Source of the DNA: a virus
Taxonomy: Duplodnaviria; Heunggongvirae; Uroviricota; Caudoviricetes
Direction: 5' to 3' (one strand)
DNA: 17,661 nt
Virus record (IMG/VR): IMGVR_UViG_2695420658_000002
Part shown: positions 950 to 17,461 of the stretch, one piece after another
Layout: each line of letters opens with the position of its first letter
Position numbering within the stretch: the stretch's first letter is position 1
Position numbers and translations under genes: made by a program
The notes under the pieces: generated by a model
Told to the model about the DNA's origin: nothing
Seen by the model: only the letters and a program-made list of their open reading frames with translations
Databases searched by the model: none

Positions 950-1621
950 TCAGCGACCAATCACCACAACCTGACCACCGTCCCCTTCGTCTGCCGTGCT
1001 GATCTCCTGAGATACCACACGTGACCCCACGCGCATTTCACCATACAGAACAGGCATAACATTGCCCTGGGCAACCATGTTATCCAGTGAGGAGAAATAG
1101 GTGTTCTGCTTACCGTTATCCGTTGTCTGTGTGCGGGGAGTTCTGGCTTTCGGTGCCAGCATCTGAGCCACACCGCCGAGCACCATACTGGCACCGAGAG
1201 AAAACAGAATGCCGGTCATACCACCGGCACCAATGGCAGCCCCCCATGCTGCAAGGGTGGCTCCGGCGGTAAAGAATGATCCGGCAATGGCGGCTGCTCC
1301 CAGGACAATCTGGAATACACCACCTGACTTGGCCCCGGCGACTCTGGGAACAATATGAATCACAGCGCCGTCAGGCAGAGCCTCATGTAACTGTGCCGTT
1401 AATCCGGACGTGCTAACATCCTGCCCGGCAATACGCACCTGATACCAGCCGTCGCTCAGCTTCTGACGAAACGCAGGGAGCTGTGTGGCCATCGCCCGGA
1501 TGGCTTCGGCACCCGTTTTCACACGAAGGTCGATGCGGCGGCCAAATCGTTGCAAATCCCCGTAAAGGCAGATGCGTGCCATGCCCGGTGACGCCAGAGG
1601 GAGTGTGTGCGTCGCTGCCAT
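950..1621 (-). CDS. I: Tail assembly protein I (ubiquitin-like N-terminal domain, Gly/Ala-rich hydrophobic middle)
   Basis: 223-aa ORF recognised as lambda gpI (MAATHTLPLASPGMARICLYGDLQRF...); 672 nt, same length as the lambda gene; ATG at 1621; overlaps K by 103 nt. Confidence 0.9.
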   Translation of the reverse strand: MAATHTLPLASPGMARICLYGDLQRFGRRIDLRVKTGAEAIRAMATQLPAFRQKLSDGWYQVRIAGQDVSTSGLTAQLHEALPDGAVIHIVPRVAGAKSGGVFQIVLGAAAIAGSFFTAGATLAAWGAAIGAGGMTGILFSLGASMVLGGVAQMLAPKARTPRTQTTDNGKQNTYFSSLDNMVAQGNVMPVLYGEMRVGSRVVSQEISTADEGDGGQVVVIGR

Positions 1622-2966: not shown

Positions 2967-3295
2967 CAGTTCACCACCTGTTCAAACTCTGCGCTGAACT
3001 CAACACGCAGCATACTGACCCGCGACGACCATTTTGCGCAGGTCACCTTTATCTGCCGCCACTCATAAGGCGGCGTCCACAGAAAGGCTTTCCAGCCCCC
3101 GTGCTCTTCCAGAAACGACTCCAGTACCATGGCCTCCTCACGGGGGACAGAAAGCGTCACGCTGTACGTTTTCAGGTTGGCATTCAGCCCGGCAGGCGCT
3201 CGCTGGGAATAGCCATCACCAAAGCGCACCTTTCTTACAGAAGGGGCCGAAGCCACATCCATACCGGGTTTCACTTTCCAGCGGAAGGTTTTCAT
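2966..3295 (-). CDS. M: Tail tip protein M
   Basis: 109-aa ORF recognised as lambda gpM (MKTFRWKVKPGMDVASAPSVRKVRFGDGYSQRAPAGLNANLKTYSV...); 330 nt as in lambda; 4-nt overlap with the H stop. Confidence 0.9.
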   Translation of the reverse strand: MKTFRWKVKPGMDVASAPSVRKVRFGDGYSQRAPAGLNANLKTYSVTLSVPREEAMVLESFLEEHGGWKAFLWTPPYEWRQIKVTCAKWSSRVSMLRVEFSAEFEQVVN

Positions 3296-5911
3296 CGTCC
3301 ACCTCCGGAGAACAGGCCACCATCACGCATCTGTGTCTGAATTTCATCACGGGCACCCTTGCGGGCCATGTCATACACGGCCTTCATCATCTGTGGACCT
3401 GGCAGACCATTCGTACCGTCGTTCTGAATCACCACGTGATTGTTCTGATTAAAATTAATGCCTTCAGCCCGCCGCATCTGCGCCGGACTTCCGGCACCGC
3501 CCACATAACCACCTTCCGCATAGCCGCGCATCAGCCGGTAGAGATTCCCCACGCCAATCCGGCTGGTTGCCTCCTTCGTGAAGACAAATTCACCACGGTG
3601 AACAATCCCCGCTGGCTCATATTTGCCGCCGGTTCCCGTAAATCCCCCGGTTGCAAAATGGAATTTCACCGCAGCGGCCTGAATGGCTGTACCACCTGAC
3701 GCGGATGCGCCGCCACCAACAGCCCCGCCAATGGCGCTGCCGATACTCCCGACAATCCCCACCATTGCCTGCTTAAGCAGAATTTCTGTCATCATGGACA
3801 GCACGGAGCGGGTGAAGCTGCGCCAGTTCTGTTCACTGCCGGTCAGCATCGCCGCCATATTCTGTGCAATACCATCAAAGGTCTGCGTGGCTGCACTTTT
3901 AACCTGTGACATACTGTCCGTGGCGCTCTCTTCCCACTCACTCCAGCCGGACTTCAGGCCTGCCATCCAGCTCCCGCGAAGCTGGTCTTCAGCCGCCCAG
4001 GTCTTTTTCTGCTCTGACATGACGTTATTCAGCGCCAGAGGATTATCGCCATACTGTTCCTTCAGGCGCTGTTCCGTGGCTTCCCGCGCTGCCTGCCGGT
4101 CAGTCAGCCCCCGGTTTTTCGCATCAATGGCTGCCCGTTTTGCCCGTTGCTGCTGTGCGAATTTATCCGCCTGCTGCGCCAGCGCATTCAGGTGCTCCNN
4201 NNNNNNNNNNNNNNNNNNNNNNNNNNNNNNNNNNNNNNNNNNNNNNNNNNNNNNNNNNNNNNNNNNNNNNNNNNNNNNNNNNNNNNNNNNNNNNNNNNNN
4301 NNNNNNNNNNNNNNNNNNNNNNNNNNNNNNNNNNNNNNNNNNNNNNNNNNNNNNNNNNNNNNNNNNNNNNNNNNNNNNNNNNNNNNNNNNNNNNNNNNNN
4401 NNNNNNNNNNNNNNNNNNNNNNNNNNNNNNNNNNNNNNNNNNNNNNNNNNNNNNNNNNNNNNNNNNNNNNNNNNNNNNNNNNNNNNNNNNNNNNNNNNNN
4501 NNNNNNNNNNNNNNNNNNNNNNNNNNNNNNNCTTCACGCCGGACTGTTTCGGCTTTTTCAGCGTCGCTTCATAATCCTTTTTCGCCGCCGCCATCAGCGT
4601 GTTGTAATCTGCCTGCAGGATTTTTCCGTCTTTCAGTGCCTTGTTCAGTTCTTCCTGACGGGCGGTATATTTCTCCAGCGGCGTCTGCAGCCGTTCGTAA
4701 GCCTTCTGCGCCTCTTCGGTATATTTCAGCCGTGACGCTTCGGTATCGCTCTGCTGCTGCGCATTTTTGTCCTGTTGACGCTGTTGATCTACCCTCTTTT
4801 GGGCTGCATCCCGCTCCAGGCGTTTTTTTTCACGATCATCCCAGTAACGCGCCCGTGCTTCATCGTTAACGAAATAATCATCCTTGCGCAGATTCCAGAT
4901 GTCGTCTGCTTTCTTAAACGCAGCCTCTGCCTTAATCAGCATCTCCTGCGCGGTATCAGGACGACCAATATCCAGCACCGCATCCCACATGGATTTGAAT
5001 GCACGTGCAGTCCTGTCTGCCCAGGTCTCCAGCGTGCCCATGTTCTCTTTCAGGCGGCGGGTCTGGTCATCAAACCCTTTCGTTGCGGCCTCGTTCGCCG
5101 CCTGCAATGCCCCGGCTTCATCGCCGGAACGCTGCAACTGAGCAACATACGCAATCTGCTCCGCCGTCACGTTATGGAACTGGCGTGCCATCGCCGTCAG
5201 CCCCGACGTCGGGTCTGTGGTCAGCTTCCCGAAGGCTTCAGCGACCTTGTCCACCTCCACGCCGGATGCATAGGAGAAACGCGCCACACTCTGGCTGATG
5301 GACGCAATCTGAGCCTCACCGCTTACCCCCGCCTTAACCAGTGCGCTGAGTGACTCGCTGGTCTGGTTAAACGTCAGCCCTGCCGCCTGCCCGGCTCTGG
5401 ACAGGACCAGCATACGATCTGCCGTCAGTCCCGCCTGATTACCGGAAAGGACCAGCGTTTTGTTGAAATCGGACAGGGTTGAGTTGCCCTGATACCAGGC
5501 ATACGCCAGCGCACCGGTCGCCACCGCCAGCGAGGTGGCCCCCACCATCGGCAGGGTGATCGCGCCGGCAAGCCCCCTGAACATGGGGATCATCCCGCCG
5601 AAGGAGTCCTTAACCTGACCACCCTGTTGCAGCAGGATCAGCCAGGGATTCTGCCCCCCTGCAAGCTGCGTGGCCACGTCGGTGAACTGTGCAGGCAGCA
5701 TACGCATGGCGGCTTTATACTGCCCGACGGAAATCCCCGCTTTCTGTGCAGCCAGCGCCTGTCGGCTCAGCGACTGTTCAACGACTGCCGCTGTTTTTTT
5801 CGCATCACTTTCCGTACCGGAAAAATGACGCCTGACTCTGGCCATCTGCTCGTCAAATCTGGCCGCATCCAGACTCAAATCAACGACCAGATCGCCTACC
5901 GGTTCAGCCAT
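3292..5911 (-). CDS. H: Tail tape measure protein H, interrupted by a 333-nt N run; reading frame differs across the run
   Basis: N-terminal 460 codons (5911-4532) begin MAEPVGDLVVDLSLDAARFDEQMARV...; the C-terminal segment (4197-3292) reads EHLNALAQQADKFAQQQRA...MSEQKKTWAAEDQL...GGLFSGGGR. Both are recognisable as lambda gpH. H start overlaps the T stop by 8 nt, as in lambda. Confidence 0.8.
4199..4531. other. Masked/unknown sequence (333 N) inside gene H
   Basis: Run of n characters in the sequence. Confidence 1.
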
Positions 5912-8487: not shown

Positions 8488-8841
8488 TCAGCGGCGACGG
8501 TTAACGGCAGGCGGTACGCCCCGTCCAAGCCAGAGATGACAACTTCCGCCATCATCCGGCGAAACCCGATCTACCCAGAAATTTTCCTCACCGATGGTCA
8601 GCGTGTCTCCACGCCGCAGCTGCCGCACCTCATCAGTCCGGACAAACAGGGACGGGCTGGAGCCTTCAACGCGCACGCCCTGTCCGGCATAGCTGATATT
8701 TTCAGGGTCATCAAAAACACCACGTATCACCGCACCTGACTGCTCACCGGATGTCATGGTGGCTGACGTTCCCATGTACCCGCGTATCGTTTCATCGGCG
8801 CGGGCAATGGCAGCATCGAACAGGTTATCGAAATCAGCCAC
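8488..8841 (-). CDS. FII: Head-tail joining protein FII
   Basis: 117-aa ORF recognised as lambda gpFII (MADFDNLFDAAIARADETIRGYMGTSATMTSGEQ...); first codon is GTG, with GGGAGG 5 nt upstream. Confidence 0.9.
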   Translation of the reverse strand: MADFDNLFDAAIARADETIRGYMGTSATMTSGEQSGAVIRGVFDDPENISYAGQGVRVEGSSPSLFVRTDEVRQLRRGDTLTIGEENFWVDRVSPDDGGSCHLWLGRGVPPAVNRRR

Positions 8842-8852
8842 AGCGCCTCCCG

Positions 8853-9251
8853 TTATTGCATTCTGGCCAGGCCGCGCTCTGTCATTTCGGCTGCCACACC
8901 GGCAGAGACACGAAACGCCGTTCCCGGCAGCACAAATGCCACAGGTTTATCCCGCGTGGCGTGAAGTGCATCAGTATGCAGCGTCACCAGTGCCACGACC
9001 GTGACCAGTTCAGCCGTATCCTGAATCACGGTATCCGGCTGCGCTGATACCACCTCATTTTCATGCCCGGTCAGCACATTTTCCCGGCTGAGAGGGGTGT
9101 CCTGACCGGCAGTTTCATCCGTGTCATCAAGCTCTTCTTCCAGCTCTGCCACACGAAGCGCCAGTTCTTCTTTCGTTCCCGTCAAACTGACATCGCGGTT
9201 CAATTGCTCACCCAGCTCCTGAAGACGGGCAATCAGTTCATCTTTCGTCAT
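8853..9251 (-). CDS. FI: DNA packaging / head assembly protein FI
   Basis: Translation from the ATG at 9251 (GGAGGAG 4 nt upstream) begins MTKDELIARLQELGEQLNRDVSLTGTKEELALRVAELEEELDDTDE, recognised as lambda gpFI; 399 nt as in lambda. The track's upstream start at 9290 lies inside the E-FI hairpin. Confidence 0.9.
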   Translation of the reverse strand: MTKDELIARLQELGEQLNRDVSLTGTKEELALRVAELEEELDDTDETAGQDTPLSRENVLTGHENEVVSAQPDTVIQDTAELVTVVALVTLHTDALHATRDKPVAFVLPGTAFRVSAGVAAEMTERGLARMQ

Positions 9252-9272
9252 GAACTCCTCCACAGAGAGAAA

Positions 9273-9290
9273 ATGGCCCCGAAGGGCCAT
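9273..9290 (-). terminator. Stable hairpin with UUCG tetraloop immediately 3' of the E stop (possible attenuator or mRNA stabiliser)
   Basis: Sense RNA AUGGCCC-UUCG-GGGCCAU (perfect 7-bp stem) followed by UUUCUCUCU and then the FI Shine-Dalgarno. Confidence 0.45.
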
Positions 9291-9292
9291 GA

Positions 9293-10318
9293 TTACGCCA
9301 GTTGAACGGACACGAACTCATCAGGATCAGCCAGCAGCATCAGCGGTGCTGACTGAATCATGGTGAACTCACGCGCCGGATCGCCGGTGGTCACCCAGTT
9401 TTTCGGGTAACGGGCAGAAGCGTTAATGCCTTCGCGCTGTGCGTCCGCATCCTGAATGCAGCCATAGGTGCGCAGACCGCGAGCCTGAGTGTTCCCCAGC
9501 ACCATCGTGTTGTCCGGCAGGAAGTTCTTTTTGACGCCGTTTTCCACGTACTGTCCGGAATACACGACGATGGCCACATCGCCATACATTCCCTTATAGG
9601 ACACCGCTTTGCCCAGGTCTTTTACCGCTGTCTCCAGCTCGGAATGAGAGCCGCGACGGGTATCCAGCTTCTCCTTGACGGCTTTGAAGGAACGGAACAG
9701 CGCCCAGCCTTTCGGGTCAAACACGATGATATTCACCACACCGCTGGCGTTCAGCGCGTAGGCTTCGATATCGTCGGTCGGGTCATACGTGGACTTGTCA
9801 CGCTTGCTCCACTCCGTGACGCCGGACTGTGTGATGTTGTTCGCCGCACTGCGGCCCATATCCACCTCAACCGGATCGAAGGCTTCACCGGTCATGGTGT
9901 ATTTGCCCTTGAGCACGGCAGAAACTGCCTGCATCTCTTCGACCTGAGCAATGGCCAGCTCTTCGTCACGCATGTTCTGCATGATGATGCGACGGCGGCG
10001 GTAAGCCGGGTCCGCCAGATTCTGCGGATCTTCATCCGGCAGGCGACGCAGGGTCATCTGCGGATTCACCTCATGCTTGGGTTTGACATATCCCGGCGTA
10101 AATTCAGAGGTGGAGCCGCCACGGGAACGGATAACCTCACCGGAAACAATCGGCGAAACGTACAGCGCCATGTTTACCAGTCCCGGAATTTGTGAGAGAT
10201 AGACTTTCTCCGTAGTGAAGGGATAGCTCTCACGGAAAAAGAGACGCAGAAACAGCGGATCAAACTTAAATTTCTGCTCATTTGCCGCCAGCAGCTGGGC
10301 GGTTGTGTACATCGACAT
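9293..10318 (-). CDS. E: Major capsid protein E
   Basis: Translation from the ATG at 10318 begins MSMYTTAQLLAANEQKFKFDPLFLRLFFRESYPFTTEKVYL, recognised as lambda gpE; 1026 nt as in lambda. Confidence 0.92.
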   Translation of the reverse strand: MSMYTTAQLLAANEQKFKFDPLFLRLFFRESYPFTTEKVYLSQIPGLVNMALYVSPIVSGEVIRSRGGSTSEFTPGYVKPKHEVNPQMTLRRLPDEDPQNLADPAYRRRRIIMQNMRDEELAIAQVEEMQAVSAVLKGKYTMTGEAFDPVEVDMGRSAANNITQSGVTEWSKRDKSTYDPTDDIEAYALNASGVVNIIVFDPKGWALFRSFKAVKEKLDTRRGSHSELETAVKDLGKAVSYKGMYGDVAIVVYSGQYVENGVKKNFLPDNTMVLGNTQARGLRTYGCIQDADAQREGINASARYPKNWVTTGDPAREFTMIQSAPLMLLADPDEFVSVQLA

Positions 10319-10331
10319 AAAAAAATCCCGT

Positions 10332-10352
10332 AAAAAAAGCCACACAGGCGGC
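10332..10352 (-). terminator. Terminator-like hairpin plus U7 tract in the D-E intergenic region, with a second U7 directly abutting the E start codon
   Basis: Sense RNA GCCGC-CUGU-GUGGC (5-bp stem with one G.U pair) followed by UUUUUUU, then ACGGGA, UUUUUUU and AUG of E. Confidence 0.4.
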
Positions 10353-10373
10353 CTTTAGTGATGAAGGGTAAAG

Positions 10374-10706
10374 TTAAACGATGCTGATTGCCGTTCCGGC
10401 AAACACGGTCCGTTTTTTCGTCTCGTCGCTGGCAGCCTCCGGCCAGAGCACATCCTCATAACGGAACGTGCCGGACTTGTAGAACGTCAGTGTGGTGCTG
10501 GTCTGGTCAGCAGCAACCGCAAGAATGCCAACGGCAGCACCGTCGGTGGTGCCATCCCACGCAACCAGCTTACGGGTGGAGGTGTCCAGCATCAGCGGGG
10601 TCATTGCAGGCGCTTTCGCACTCAATCCGCCGGGCGCGGTTGCGGTATGAGCCGGGTCACTATTGCCCAGCGGCTGGTAATGGGTAAAGGTTTCTTTGCT
10701 CGTCAT
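10374..10706 (-). CDS. D: Capsid decoration protein D
   Basis: Translation from the ATG at 10706 begins [35 protein letters not shown], recognised as lambda gpD; 333 nt as in lambda. The track starts 2 codons upstream (MFMTSKE). Confidence 0.9.
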
Positions 10707-10715
10707 AAACATCCC

Positions 10716-11321: not shown

Positions 11322-12015
11322 CCGGGACTGCAATGTTTCCCGGACATCATCCGGTAGATGGCTGTAGGGGTTGCCATCCACCTTATGGCTGCCGCTGTAA
11401 ATCAGCGTGATTTCCACGCCCTGTTTCTCCAGTGCAGCGCCGTAATTACTGTGAGCCATCATGACGCCGATGGAGCCTGTCCGGGCGGTCTGCGTGACCA
11501 GACGCCGGGAGGCGGCACTGGCAAGCAGCTGACCTGCGCTGCAGTTCATGTCATTGGCCAGCGCCCATACCGGCTTTATGTCACGCACACGGGCGATGAT
11601 GTCAGCGCAGTCAAATGCTCCCGCCACCATTCCGCCCGGTGTGTCCATATCGAGCAGAATGCCGTCCACCATCGGGTCGCTGGCAGCCTGTTGCAGACGG
11701 GCGATAATGCCGTTGTAACCGGTCATCCCCGAGTACGGCTGCAGCGCCCGCGTCCGGCTGACCAGCGTGCCGGACACCGGCAGCACGGCGATGCCGTTCA
11801 TTACCTGATAACTGCGGGCCTGTCGTGGTCCGTCATCATCACCGGATAACGCCAGCGCCGCGGGTGCCTCTCCGGCAGTCAGGCTGTCGCCGGATACTGC
11901 ATCCGTCAGGCAGCTGATCCCAAGCTGGCCTGCAAGCGCACAAAAGAAAACCCGCGCATAGGCGGGTTCAAGCATCAGCGGCTCATTAAAAGCCATGCTG
12001 GCAATATGCGGGAGA

Positions 12016-16408: not shown

Positions 16409-16977
16409 NNNNNNNNNNNNNNNNNNNNNNNNNNNNNNNNNNNNNNNNNNNNNNNNNNNNNNNNNNNNNNNNNNNNNNNNNNNNNNNNNNNNNNNNNNNN
16501 NNNNNNNNNNNNNNNNNNNNNNNNNNNNNNNNNNNNNNNNNNNNNNNNNNNNNNNNNNNNNNNNNNNNNNNNNNNNNNNNNNNNNNNNNNNNNNNNNNNN
16601 NNNNNNNNNNNNNNNNNNNNNNNNNNNNNNNNNNNNNNNNNNNNNNNNNNNNNNNNNNNNNNNNNNNNNNNNNNNNNNNNNNNNNNNNNNNNNNNNNNNN
16701 NNNNNNNNNNNNNNNNNNNNNNNNNNNNNNNNNNNNNNNNNNNNNNNNNNNNNNNNNNNNNNNNNNNNNNNNNNNNNNNNNNNNNNNNNNNNNNNNNNNN
16801 NNNNNNNNNNNNNNNNNNNNNNNNNNNNNNNNNNNNNNNNNNNNNNNNNNNNNNNNNNNNNNNNNNNNNNNNNNNNNNNNNNNNNNNNNNNNNNNNNNNN
16901 NNNNNNNNNNNNNNNNNNNNNNNNNNNNNNNNNNNNNNNNNNNNNNNNNNNNNNNNNNNNNNNNNNNNNNNNNNNNN
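16409..16977. other. Masked/unknown sequence (569 N); expected location of cosN and the cos-proximal region beyond it
   Basis: Run of n characters; by lambda spacing (Nu1 start about 190 nt from the cohesive end) cosN would lie near 16440-16465. Confidence 0.9.
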
Positions 16978-17020: not shown

Positions 17021-17461
17021 ATGGCTCAGGTTGCCATTTTTAAACAAATATTCGATAAAGTGCGAAATAATTTAAACTATCACTGGTTTTNNNNNNNNNN
17101 NNNNNNNNNNNNNNNNNNNNNNNNNNNNNNNNNNNNNNNNNNNNNNNNNNNNNNNATTTACTATTTAGCCACAGAGAATATTCATCTTGTTCTTGAAAAC
17201 GATAATACGGTTTTAATAAAAGGACAGGGTAAGGTTGTAAATGTAAGATTTTCAAAAAATAAATGCCTTATAGAAGCCACCTTAAAAGGATTCAAATCAG
17301 GAGAGTTATCATTTTACGAATACAGGAAAAATCTTGCTACAGCAGGGGTTTTCAGATGGATTACAAATATCCACGAAAACAAAAGGTATTACTATACCTT
17401 TGATAATTCATTACTCTTTACTGAGAACATACAGAACACTACACAAATATTTCCGCACTAA
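17021..17461 (+). CDS. Hypothetical protein, AT-rich moron-like cargo ORF beyond cos; possibly a DUF1398-type (YbcV/YdfO-like) prophage protein
   Basis: ATG at 17021 with GGAAGG 7 nt upstream (the track's ATG at 17006 has no Shine-Dalgarno); frame open to TAA at 17459-17461; markedly lower G+C than the structural genes; interrupted by a 65-nt N run. The family assignment is from memory of similar prophage proteins and is weak. Confidence 0.55.
17091..17155. other. Masked/unknown sequence (65 N) inside the AT-rich ORF
   Basis: Run of n characters. Confidence 1.

Follow-up and report, generated by a model that had tools for sequence, protein, structure and literature searches.

A conserved hairpin between the capsid gene E and FI of lambda-like phages as a candidate guard of capsid mRNA or stop for stray transcription

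Introduction

The late operon of phage lambda is a textbook example of a transcription unit in which a single promoter serves genes whose proteins are made in widely different amounts, and the major capsid protein E, with about 415 copies per virion, is an abundant product. Relative expression of the lambda late genes was reportedly attributed mainly to translation initiation by Sampson et al. in 1988. FI, encoded directly after E, is known from the literature as a packaging chaperone that is needed in vivo. Which role, then, can be assigned to a perfect, GC-rich palindrome between these two genes? A first-pass annotation had proposed a 3' stabiliser or an attenuator that sets the stoichiometry of E to FI. 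A full-text literature search, with the lambda ribosome-profiling paper outside its coverage, found no paper giving the ends or half-lives of transcripts at the lambda E-FI junction.

The window, the whole stretch of 17,661 nucleotides that was analysed, comes from a lambda-like phage and covers its late region of head and tail genes, which lie on the minus strand. Along its entire length it matches lambda-type phages, with 99.6% identity to phage Chlobot and 97.2% to lambda. The record of 'Campylobacter phage CJLB-4' (MW057783.1) matches it exactly as lambda does, at 97.2%. The window contains runs of N at 4199-4531 (333 nt), 16409-16977 (569 nt) and 17091-17155 (65 nt). In the tape-measure gene H a frameshift is only apparent and results from the first of these runs, which splits H into open reading frames 4163-5911 and 3292-4020 in different frames.

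Results

The E-FI junction and its hairpin

Gene positions were derived from the list of open reading frames, their translations and the annotations of matching records. The junction and its surroundings comprise the following features:

10374-10712, minus strand: D, head decoration protein (open reading frame list and matching annotations)
9293-10318, minus strand: E, major capsid protein of 341 amino acids (translation), with the stop codon UAA at 9295-9293
9273-9290, minus strand: E-FI stem-loop AUGGCCC-UUCG-GGGCCAU, a perfect 7-bp stem with five G-C pairs and a C(UUCG)G tetraloop
9262-9272, minus strand: pyrimidine (U/C-rich) tract UUUCUCUCUGU, adjoining the 3' end of the E-FI stem
9255-9261, minus strand: Shine-Dalgarno sequence GGAGGAG of FI, its GGAGG core 5 nt before the ATG
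9251-9249, minus strand: start codon ATG of FI
8853-9251, minus strand: FI, DNA-packaging chaperone of 132 amino acids (translation and annotation of matching records)

At the nucleotide level E is 97-99.6% identical to genes of lambda-type phages that carry the annotation major capsid protein E. The minus strand at the junction reads ...CAACTGGCG TAA TC ATGGCCC TTCG GGGCCAT TTTCTCTCTGT GGAGGAG TTC ATG ACG..., corresponding to the sense RNA UAA-UC-AUGGCCC-UUCG-GGGCCAU-UUUCUCUCUGU-GGAGGAG-UUC-AUG. The perfect 7-bp UUCG hairpin of the first-pass annotation is thereby confirmed in sequence and coordinates, as is the GGAGGAG site of FI that follows it; the only correction concerns its placement directly after the E stop, as the hairpin begins 2 nt past the UAA. 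It ends 22 nt before the FI ATG.

The isolated hairpin has a folding energy of -12.3 kcal/mol (z = -3.3 against shuffles) and is retained in the minimum-energy as well as the centroid fold of its 91-nt context. With a GC-rich stem within the range of about 5-14 bp and a loop within 3-8 nt on the transcribed strand, it has the stem of an intrinsic terminator, and a pattern scan listed it as terminator-like on the sense strand with the tail TTTCTCTC from the tract 9262-9272. In the window the stem is followed by UUUCUCUC and, as the last base of the stem is also U, the resulting run UUUUCUCU passes the scan. A terminator on the antisense strand was considered and ruled out, since a T-run is present on the sense side only and the plus strand continues after the palindrome with GATTACGCC. 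The U/C tract could be the U-tract of a terminator, and could also pair weakly with the Shine-Dalgarno sequence of FI. It varies in close relatives (TTGTTTCTCTGT, TTGTTTTTCTGT, TTGTCTCTCTGT), the corresponding 3' tail being UGUUUCUC, interrupted by G, in lambda and CUUUCUGG in N15 and HK225. A search with Rfam 15 gave no match at the gathering threshold anywhere in the window.

The first three bases of the E-FI stem are an ATG, from which a 145-amino-acid open reading frame (8853-9290) with an N-terminally extended FI would start. This extension was rejected: the ATG has no Shine-Dalgarno sequence and, although in frame in the lambda and N15 types, is out of frame or absent in the Kluyvera, Citrobacter and Phytobacter types. 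Annotation of the FI start is in general inconsistent between records (8853-9290, minus strand, in the window; 1638-2048 and 1748-2155 in the loci L002 and L085); in the lambda imm21 record FI begins at a GTG, 12 nt ahead of the usual ATG, and in the record of phage D2 the start ATG falls inside the loop of D2's own hairpin behind the capsid gene.

Chance or selection

By pattern alone, a 7-bp hairpin in 17.6 kb is not significant. Perfect hairpins of at least 7 bp on the sense strand number 11, against 7.2 +/- 3.0 in dinucleotide shuffles; those with at least five G-C pairs number 4 against 3.6 +/- 2.1 in the same shuffles, and terminator-like sites in the window 22 against an expected 16.2 +/- 4.6. 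Among other elements of this kind are a perfect, GC-rich 7-bp hairpin AACCCGC-CUAUGC-GCGGGUU followed by UUCUUUUG within C, the protease/scaffold gene (11949-11968, minus strand), and the perfect 7-bp hairpin UGCCGGU-GGUAUG-ACCGGCA followed by UUCUGUUUU at 1210-1229 (minus strand) in the tail-gene open reading frame 950-1621, the best-ranked match of the terminator-like scan.

What exceeds chance is the position of the E-FI hairpin, which fills a spacer of 41 nt although the operon is tightly packed, and its conservation in relatives. In lambda-type loci the 16-nt core TGGCCCTTCGGGGCCA is identical in 81 of 82, the remaining one carrying a loop changed from UUCG to UUCU, and the first base of the stem is A or G, of which G retains a G.U pair. 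In the same 82 loci the spacer and the Shine-Dalgarno sequence of FI beside the hairpin vary at several positions, the latter occurring in close relatives as GGAGAAG, GGATGAG, GGGGGAG and AGAGGAG.

The comparison was extended to N15-type, Kluyvera, Citrobacter, Phytobacter, Trabulsiella, Pluralibacter and other prophages, the E proteins of which are 87-97% identical. The core GGCCC-N4-GGGCC is kept in all 34 distinct lambda/N15-type hairpin variants, so that the conservation of the palindrome in lambdoid genomes, proposed earlier as a check, is clearly borne out; Erwinia endophytica supplies a 35th sequence, whose stem UGGUCCC/GGGGCCA is related and contains a U.G wobble. Both spacers that flank the hairpin differ in length and sequence to the extent that they are not alignable. 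The same stem carries at least 11 forms of loop, including UUCG, UGUC, UGUU, UGCG, AUUC, UUUC, UCCG and UGAU. Across these lambda/N15-type relatives the UUCG loop is hence not kept by selection, and the tetraloop, which the first-pass annotation had named, is not the conserved part.

The outer pair 7 is A-U, G.U or G-C, and pair 6 is U-A, C-G or U.G and unpaired in 10 sequences. The covariation score of these outer pairs was matched by one of 500 shuffles, and sliding of the register destroys the pairing. Covariation is confined to these two outer pairs, as the five invariant core pairs are uninformative in this respect. Together these patterns indicate that selection acts on the structure rather than the sequence of the E-FI element. 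That the palindrome is conserved in lambdoid relatives argues for a functional rather than an accidental element. A chance palindrome without function, for which the unexceptional frequency of 7-bp hairpins and terminator-like sites in the window would speak, is already contradicted by the comparative data, namely by a core that stays unchanged amid variable flanks, by the two covarying pairs and by the independent hairpins at the same position in distant lineages described below, and is scarcely credible.

Pyrimidine tracts beside the hairpin, CUUCC just past the stop in the N15 type and UUUCUCU after the stem in the lambda type, might pair with the Shine-Dalgarno sequence of FI such that a ribosome terminating on E would release the FI site. 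Helices of this sort are drawn in single-sequence folds and 88% of the cells in the proposed outer helix are pairable; however, the helix is not predicted by RNAalifold, compensatory changes are missing, every shuffle equals the observed alignment, and any pyrimidine tract pairs with a purine-rich Shine-Dalgarno sequence. In the N15 type the outer helix between the sequence past the E stop and the FI Shine-Dalgarno sequence was found unsupported, with only one-sided C/U changes opposite a constant G. The second hairpin of the lambda type in the window, UUUCUCU/GGAGGAG, has -4.5 kcal/mol, no different from shuffles. Such a coupling of FI to E is very unlikely.

Hairpins behind distant capsid genes

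Distant loci were collected with a profile of five capsid-E proteins searched against species-representative genomes, for their prophages, together with annotated phages. In nearly every lineage a GC-rich hairpin is found just past the capsid stop, while the stems are unrelated in sequence:

D2 type: CGGGGGC-GAAAU-GCCCCCG, followed by T's
569R10 type: AAGAGCC-GAAA-GGCUCUU, followed by T's
Providencia: CGGCGGG-GAAA-CCCGCCG, followed by T's
Serratia: GGGGC-UACG-GCCCC
Aeromonas, Pseudomonas-group and alphaproteobacterial loci: other stems

Phage D2 had at first seemed to be missing the hairpin; this was wrong, as the FI start of the record lies in the loop. One representative per lineage was scored for a perfect hairpin, defined as a stem of at least 6 bp with at least four G-C pairs, in the 60 nt that follow the capsid stop. 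Of 25 lineages 20 have one, where the same loci lead to an expectation of 4.5 and a value of 20 was never attained in 200,000 simulations; the control windows behind this expectation are mostly coding, so that the enrichment may partly reflect non-coding spacers in general. The median folding energy after the E stop is -14.0 kcal/mol, compared with -8.8 inside E and -8.7 after other stops (p about 3e-9, for loci that are phylogenetically non-independent).

Extra-stable loops (UUCG, UCCG, UGCG, UACG and GAAA) recur independently, the UNCG type also in two unrelated stems (UUCG in the locus L128, UACG in L132). The hairpin begins 0 to about 36 nt past the stop codon. Its 3' end lies roughly 18-28 nt ahead of the following start codon in the enterobacterial junctions that were inspected, and two lineages have a gap of only 11 nt here. 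Between 0 and 7 T's occur in the 8 nt after the stem across distant lineages; enterobacterial versions are mostly T-rich, with 4-7 T's, and the count is near zero in the Pseudomonas group and several alphaproteobacterial loci. The conserved feature is thus a stable hairpin at this position rather than a canonical terminator, because the U-tract, like the UUCG loop, is inconsistently kept.

Genes for lambda-type E (protein 95-100% identical to that of the window) were also encountered on contigs from unrelated organisms such as Neobacillus, Kitasatospora, Paenibacillus, Bradyrhizobium, an Akkermansia metagenome-assembled genome and others. These contigs (L090-L105, L113, L123, L125, L130, L135, L137-L142, L144, L145, L149, L152) are mostly short and of about 1x coverage where the name states it. 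Along with the record MW057783.1 mentioned above they most likely represent lambda DNA contamination or spike-in and not real hosts.

Hairpins on both sides of E

The E-FI hairpin is not the only one to adjoin the capsid gene. E is bracketed by two hairpins in the spacers to D and to FI, which according to the lambda annotation are the two largest spacers among the genes D to M:

10335-10356, minus strand: terminator-like hairpin AAAGGCCGC-CUGU-GUGGCUUUU in the D-E spacer, followed by a U-run (from the sequence)

The homologue of the D-E hairpin is annotated as "rho-independent terminator" in HK629, N15 and HK225, and in N15, HK225 and 569R10 it is a textbook hairpin with T-run; a hairpin is also present in D2. 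At this hairpin lambda presumably reads GCGGC where the window has GTGGC, by which one G-C would become a G.U pair.

The E-FI hairpin might act as a backstop which halts polymerase not modified by Q, originating from stray initiation in the prophage or from read-in from the host, and is ignored by Q-modified polymerase, with the consequence that the late structural genes would be expressed solely via Q antitermination. The match to the terminator pattern (GC stem, 4-nt loop, tail UUUUCUCU), the annotation of the N15 and HK225 homologues as putative rho-independent terminators, the stronger terminator-like hairpin in the D-E spacer and the T-rich tails mostly kept in enterobacterial versions all point in this direction. 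On the other hand, the U-tract is interrupted in lambda (UUGUUUCU), poor in N15 and HK225 (CUUUCUGG) and missing in many distant lineages that retain the hairpin. At 2 nt past the stop, moreover, ribosomes would repress termination, from which untranslated stray transcripts are exempt: the Escherichia coli terminator tR2, tested at 8-59 bp, is almost fully repressed close to a translated stop and reaches its maximum at more than 30 bp (PMC4824070). The E-FI stem is nearer to its stop than a working intrinsic terminator should be, a consideration that is relevant to translated transcripts only. On balance the backstop function, including its consequence for the late genes, is regarded as a less probable alternative to the exonuclease barrier favoured below, to which it is closely related.

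Alternatively, some of the polymerase would terminate at the hairpin in lytic growth, which would leave less mRNA for FI and downstream genes than for E. Besides the terminator-like anatomy, the position suits a step down from a capsid protein present in 415 copies to accessory proteins, and leaky terminators that balance expression have been discussed for other phages, T7 and LUZ7 (PMC9163698). Yet the late operon is transcribed by polymerase which the Q antiterminator renders resistant to terminators in lambdoid phages (PMC8022706), and E, the gene in greatest demand, is itself directly preceded by a stronger terminator-like hairpin. Because this D-E hairpin precedes E, such hairpins must be efficiently read through. 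Further, high copy numbers are likewise required of the major tail protein V, whose gene is downstream, a terminator few bp past a translated stop is nearly inactive (PMC4824070) and the U-tract is not conserved. Partial termination setting the ratio of E to FI is therefore the less likely account, and attenuation as such is unlikely. Of the earlier two-sided proposal, the stabiliser retains its footing in a conserved element at a fitting position, while the attenuator is weakened by Q antitermination, the D-E hairpin upstream and a heavily translated stop codon 2 nt away.

Start regions of E and FI

Opening the ribosome-binding region of FI costs about 12.7 kcal/mol compared with 4.8 for E. 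The value predicted for E is among the two lowest of the late genes examined; the E start region (10319-10345, minus strand) is U-rich (UUUUUUUACGGGAUUUUUUUAUG), with only a weak GGGA Shine-Dalgarno-like element. At the FI start a further hairpin is found:

9235-9256, minus strand: weak A/U-rich hairpin AGUUCAU-GACGAAAG-AUGAACU, a perfect 7-bp stem with two G-C pairs

The FI start codon contributes its first two bases (AU) to this hairpin, which is perfect in the ...GAGTTCATG (TTC) allele of the window alone, the commoner ...GAGTCCATG allele being mismatched. This TTC/TCC polymorphism occurs among close relatives, and translation of FI might be reduced in the allele of the window, as far as the predicted fold indicates.

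A comparatively structured FI start has a bearing on whether the E-FI hairpin is a translational insulator that would separate the heavy ribosome traffic on E from the start of FI, block sliding and re-initiation and keep the FI site from pairing with E coding sequence, so that FI would be translated by fresh initiation only. Consistent with such a function are the energies just given and, in the enterobacterial junctions that were inspected, the location of the hairpin's 3' end at the margin of the ribosome-binding footprint, about 18-28 nt upstream of the following start. However, the gap between stop and hairpin can be anything from 0 to about 36 nt, two lineages have only 11 nt between hairpin and start, and a similar hairpin precedes E, whose translation is maximal. 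Both insulation and its proposed mode of action are thus quite improbable.

Discussion

A read-through hairpin as proposed protector of the E message

Of the functions considered, we favour, at a probability of roughly 40%, that the E-FI hairpin is a terminator-like element which is read through by antiterminated polymerase and blocks 3' exonucleases, giving rise to a longer-lived E mRNA. During lytic growth, Q-modified RNA polymerase, with the ribosomes that finish E close behind, would pass the hairpin, and FI and the tail genes would still be transcribed because the modified polymerase reads through. Once the late transcript is cut downstream, the stable GC stem, capped in many lineages by a UNCG-type loop, would halt 3'-to-5' exonucleases at the end of E, and the D-E hairpin would act likewise for the segment that ends with D. 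The messages of the two most abundant head proteins would as a result outlive the downstream part of the transcript. Polymerase not modified by Q would probably be terminated by the same E-FI hairpin. The protein ratio of E to FI would be set mainly by translation initiation, to which the hairpin may contribute via mRNA lifetime.

The exonuclease barrier is preferred since a stable hairpin that is conserved without a conserved U-tract suggests a role of the RNA structure itself. The position after the most abundant late protein likewise fits a 3' stabiliser, and the hairpin need not block translation of FI, since 22 nt separate its end from the FI ATG, which places it just beyond the usual ribosome-binding footprint. 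Against a stabiliser speak the T-rich tails (4-7 T in 8 nt) of most enterobacterial versions, because of which a genuine terminator fits at least equally well in the enterobacterial clade, and the fact that annotators label the homologous element a rho-independent terminator. The role of the hairpin is probably either protection of the capsid mRNA or a stop for stray transcription.

A more far-reaching and doubtful extension of the exonuclease barrier is that the D-E and E-FI hairpins would together delimit an unusually long-lived E-only mRNA of about 1.1 kb, cut from the late transcript, in which the upstream hairpin would guard the 5' end and the downstream hairpin the 3' end. If this holds, phages of the capsid-E family would possess a conserved boost of capsid output that is independent of transcription.

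More generally, if these hairpins make the capsid message last longer or keep non-antiterminated transcription in check, a post-transcriptional layer would be added to the model of the late operon, which would also account for the hairpins right after the capsid gene in so many tailed phages. The novelty is modest and lies in the breadth of positional conservation after the capsid gene. The E-FI hairpin has been visible ever since the lambda sequence was published, and the element is of an already known and annotated kind rather than of a new type.

Comparison with known systems

The closest counterparts are the homologous E-FI stem-loops of N15 (AF064539, stem_loop 7053-7073) and HK225 (JQ086371, 7009-7028), both labelled "putative rho-independent terminator". 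They share with the window the junction of the major head gene with an FI-like gene and the GGCCC/GGGCC core stem, but differ in the loop (AUUC or UGUC instead of UUCG), in the outer pair (G-C instead of A-U), in the distance from the stop (9 nt instead of 2) and in a poorer U-tract. In the lambda-type records inspected (HK629, lambda imm21 and NC_001416) the E-FI hairpin is unannotated, HK629 annotating only the one between D and E.

Hairpins that match the loop of the window exactly, with UUCG closed by C-G (CC-UUCG-GG), are said to have been described as extra-stable tetraloop hairpins by Tuerk et al. in 1988; the loop is not conserved, however, N15-type elements carrying UGUC, UGUU, AUUC, UUUC or UGAU. 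Phage T7, with the leaky terminator T-phi after its capsid gene 10, has a different polymerase and regulation and is without Q-type antitermination.

Within an antiterminated late operon with a single promoter, a predicted terminator also ends the procapsid gene module of phage L, and in the 2020 genome paper of this phage the roles of late-operon terminators were called unknown, with partial termination or the halting of stray non-antiterminated transcription as the authors' suggestions (PMC8022706). The late-operon terminator of this P22-like phage is alike, whereas its capsid gene belongs to an unrelated family and sequence homology is absent. In SPP1, capsid gene 13 ends at 8777 and a terminator is predicted at 8775-8815 (PMC6316719). 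A hairpin terminator thus stands right after an unrelated major capsid gene, in a phage whose late transcription is poorly defined.

For the favoured exonuclease barrier the models are found outside of phages, as the malE-malF REP element and the hairpin of the Rhodobacter puf operon are intercistronic mRNA-stabilising hairpins. In each case a stable stem-loop is located between cistrons, 3' of the more abundantly expressed one, and is proposed to act as a barrier to 3' exonucleases. The E-FI hairpin occupies the same position behind the higher-expressed cistron; it is likened to these elements by position and predicted fold, and is distinguished from them by its terminator-like U-rich tail.
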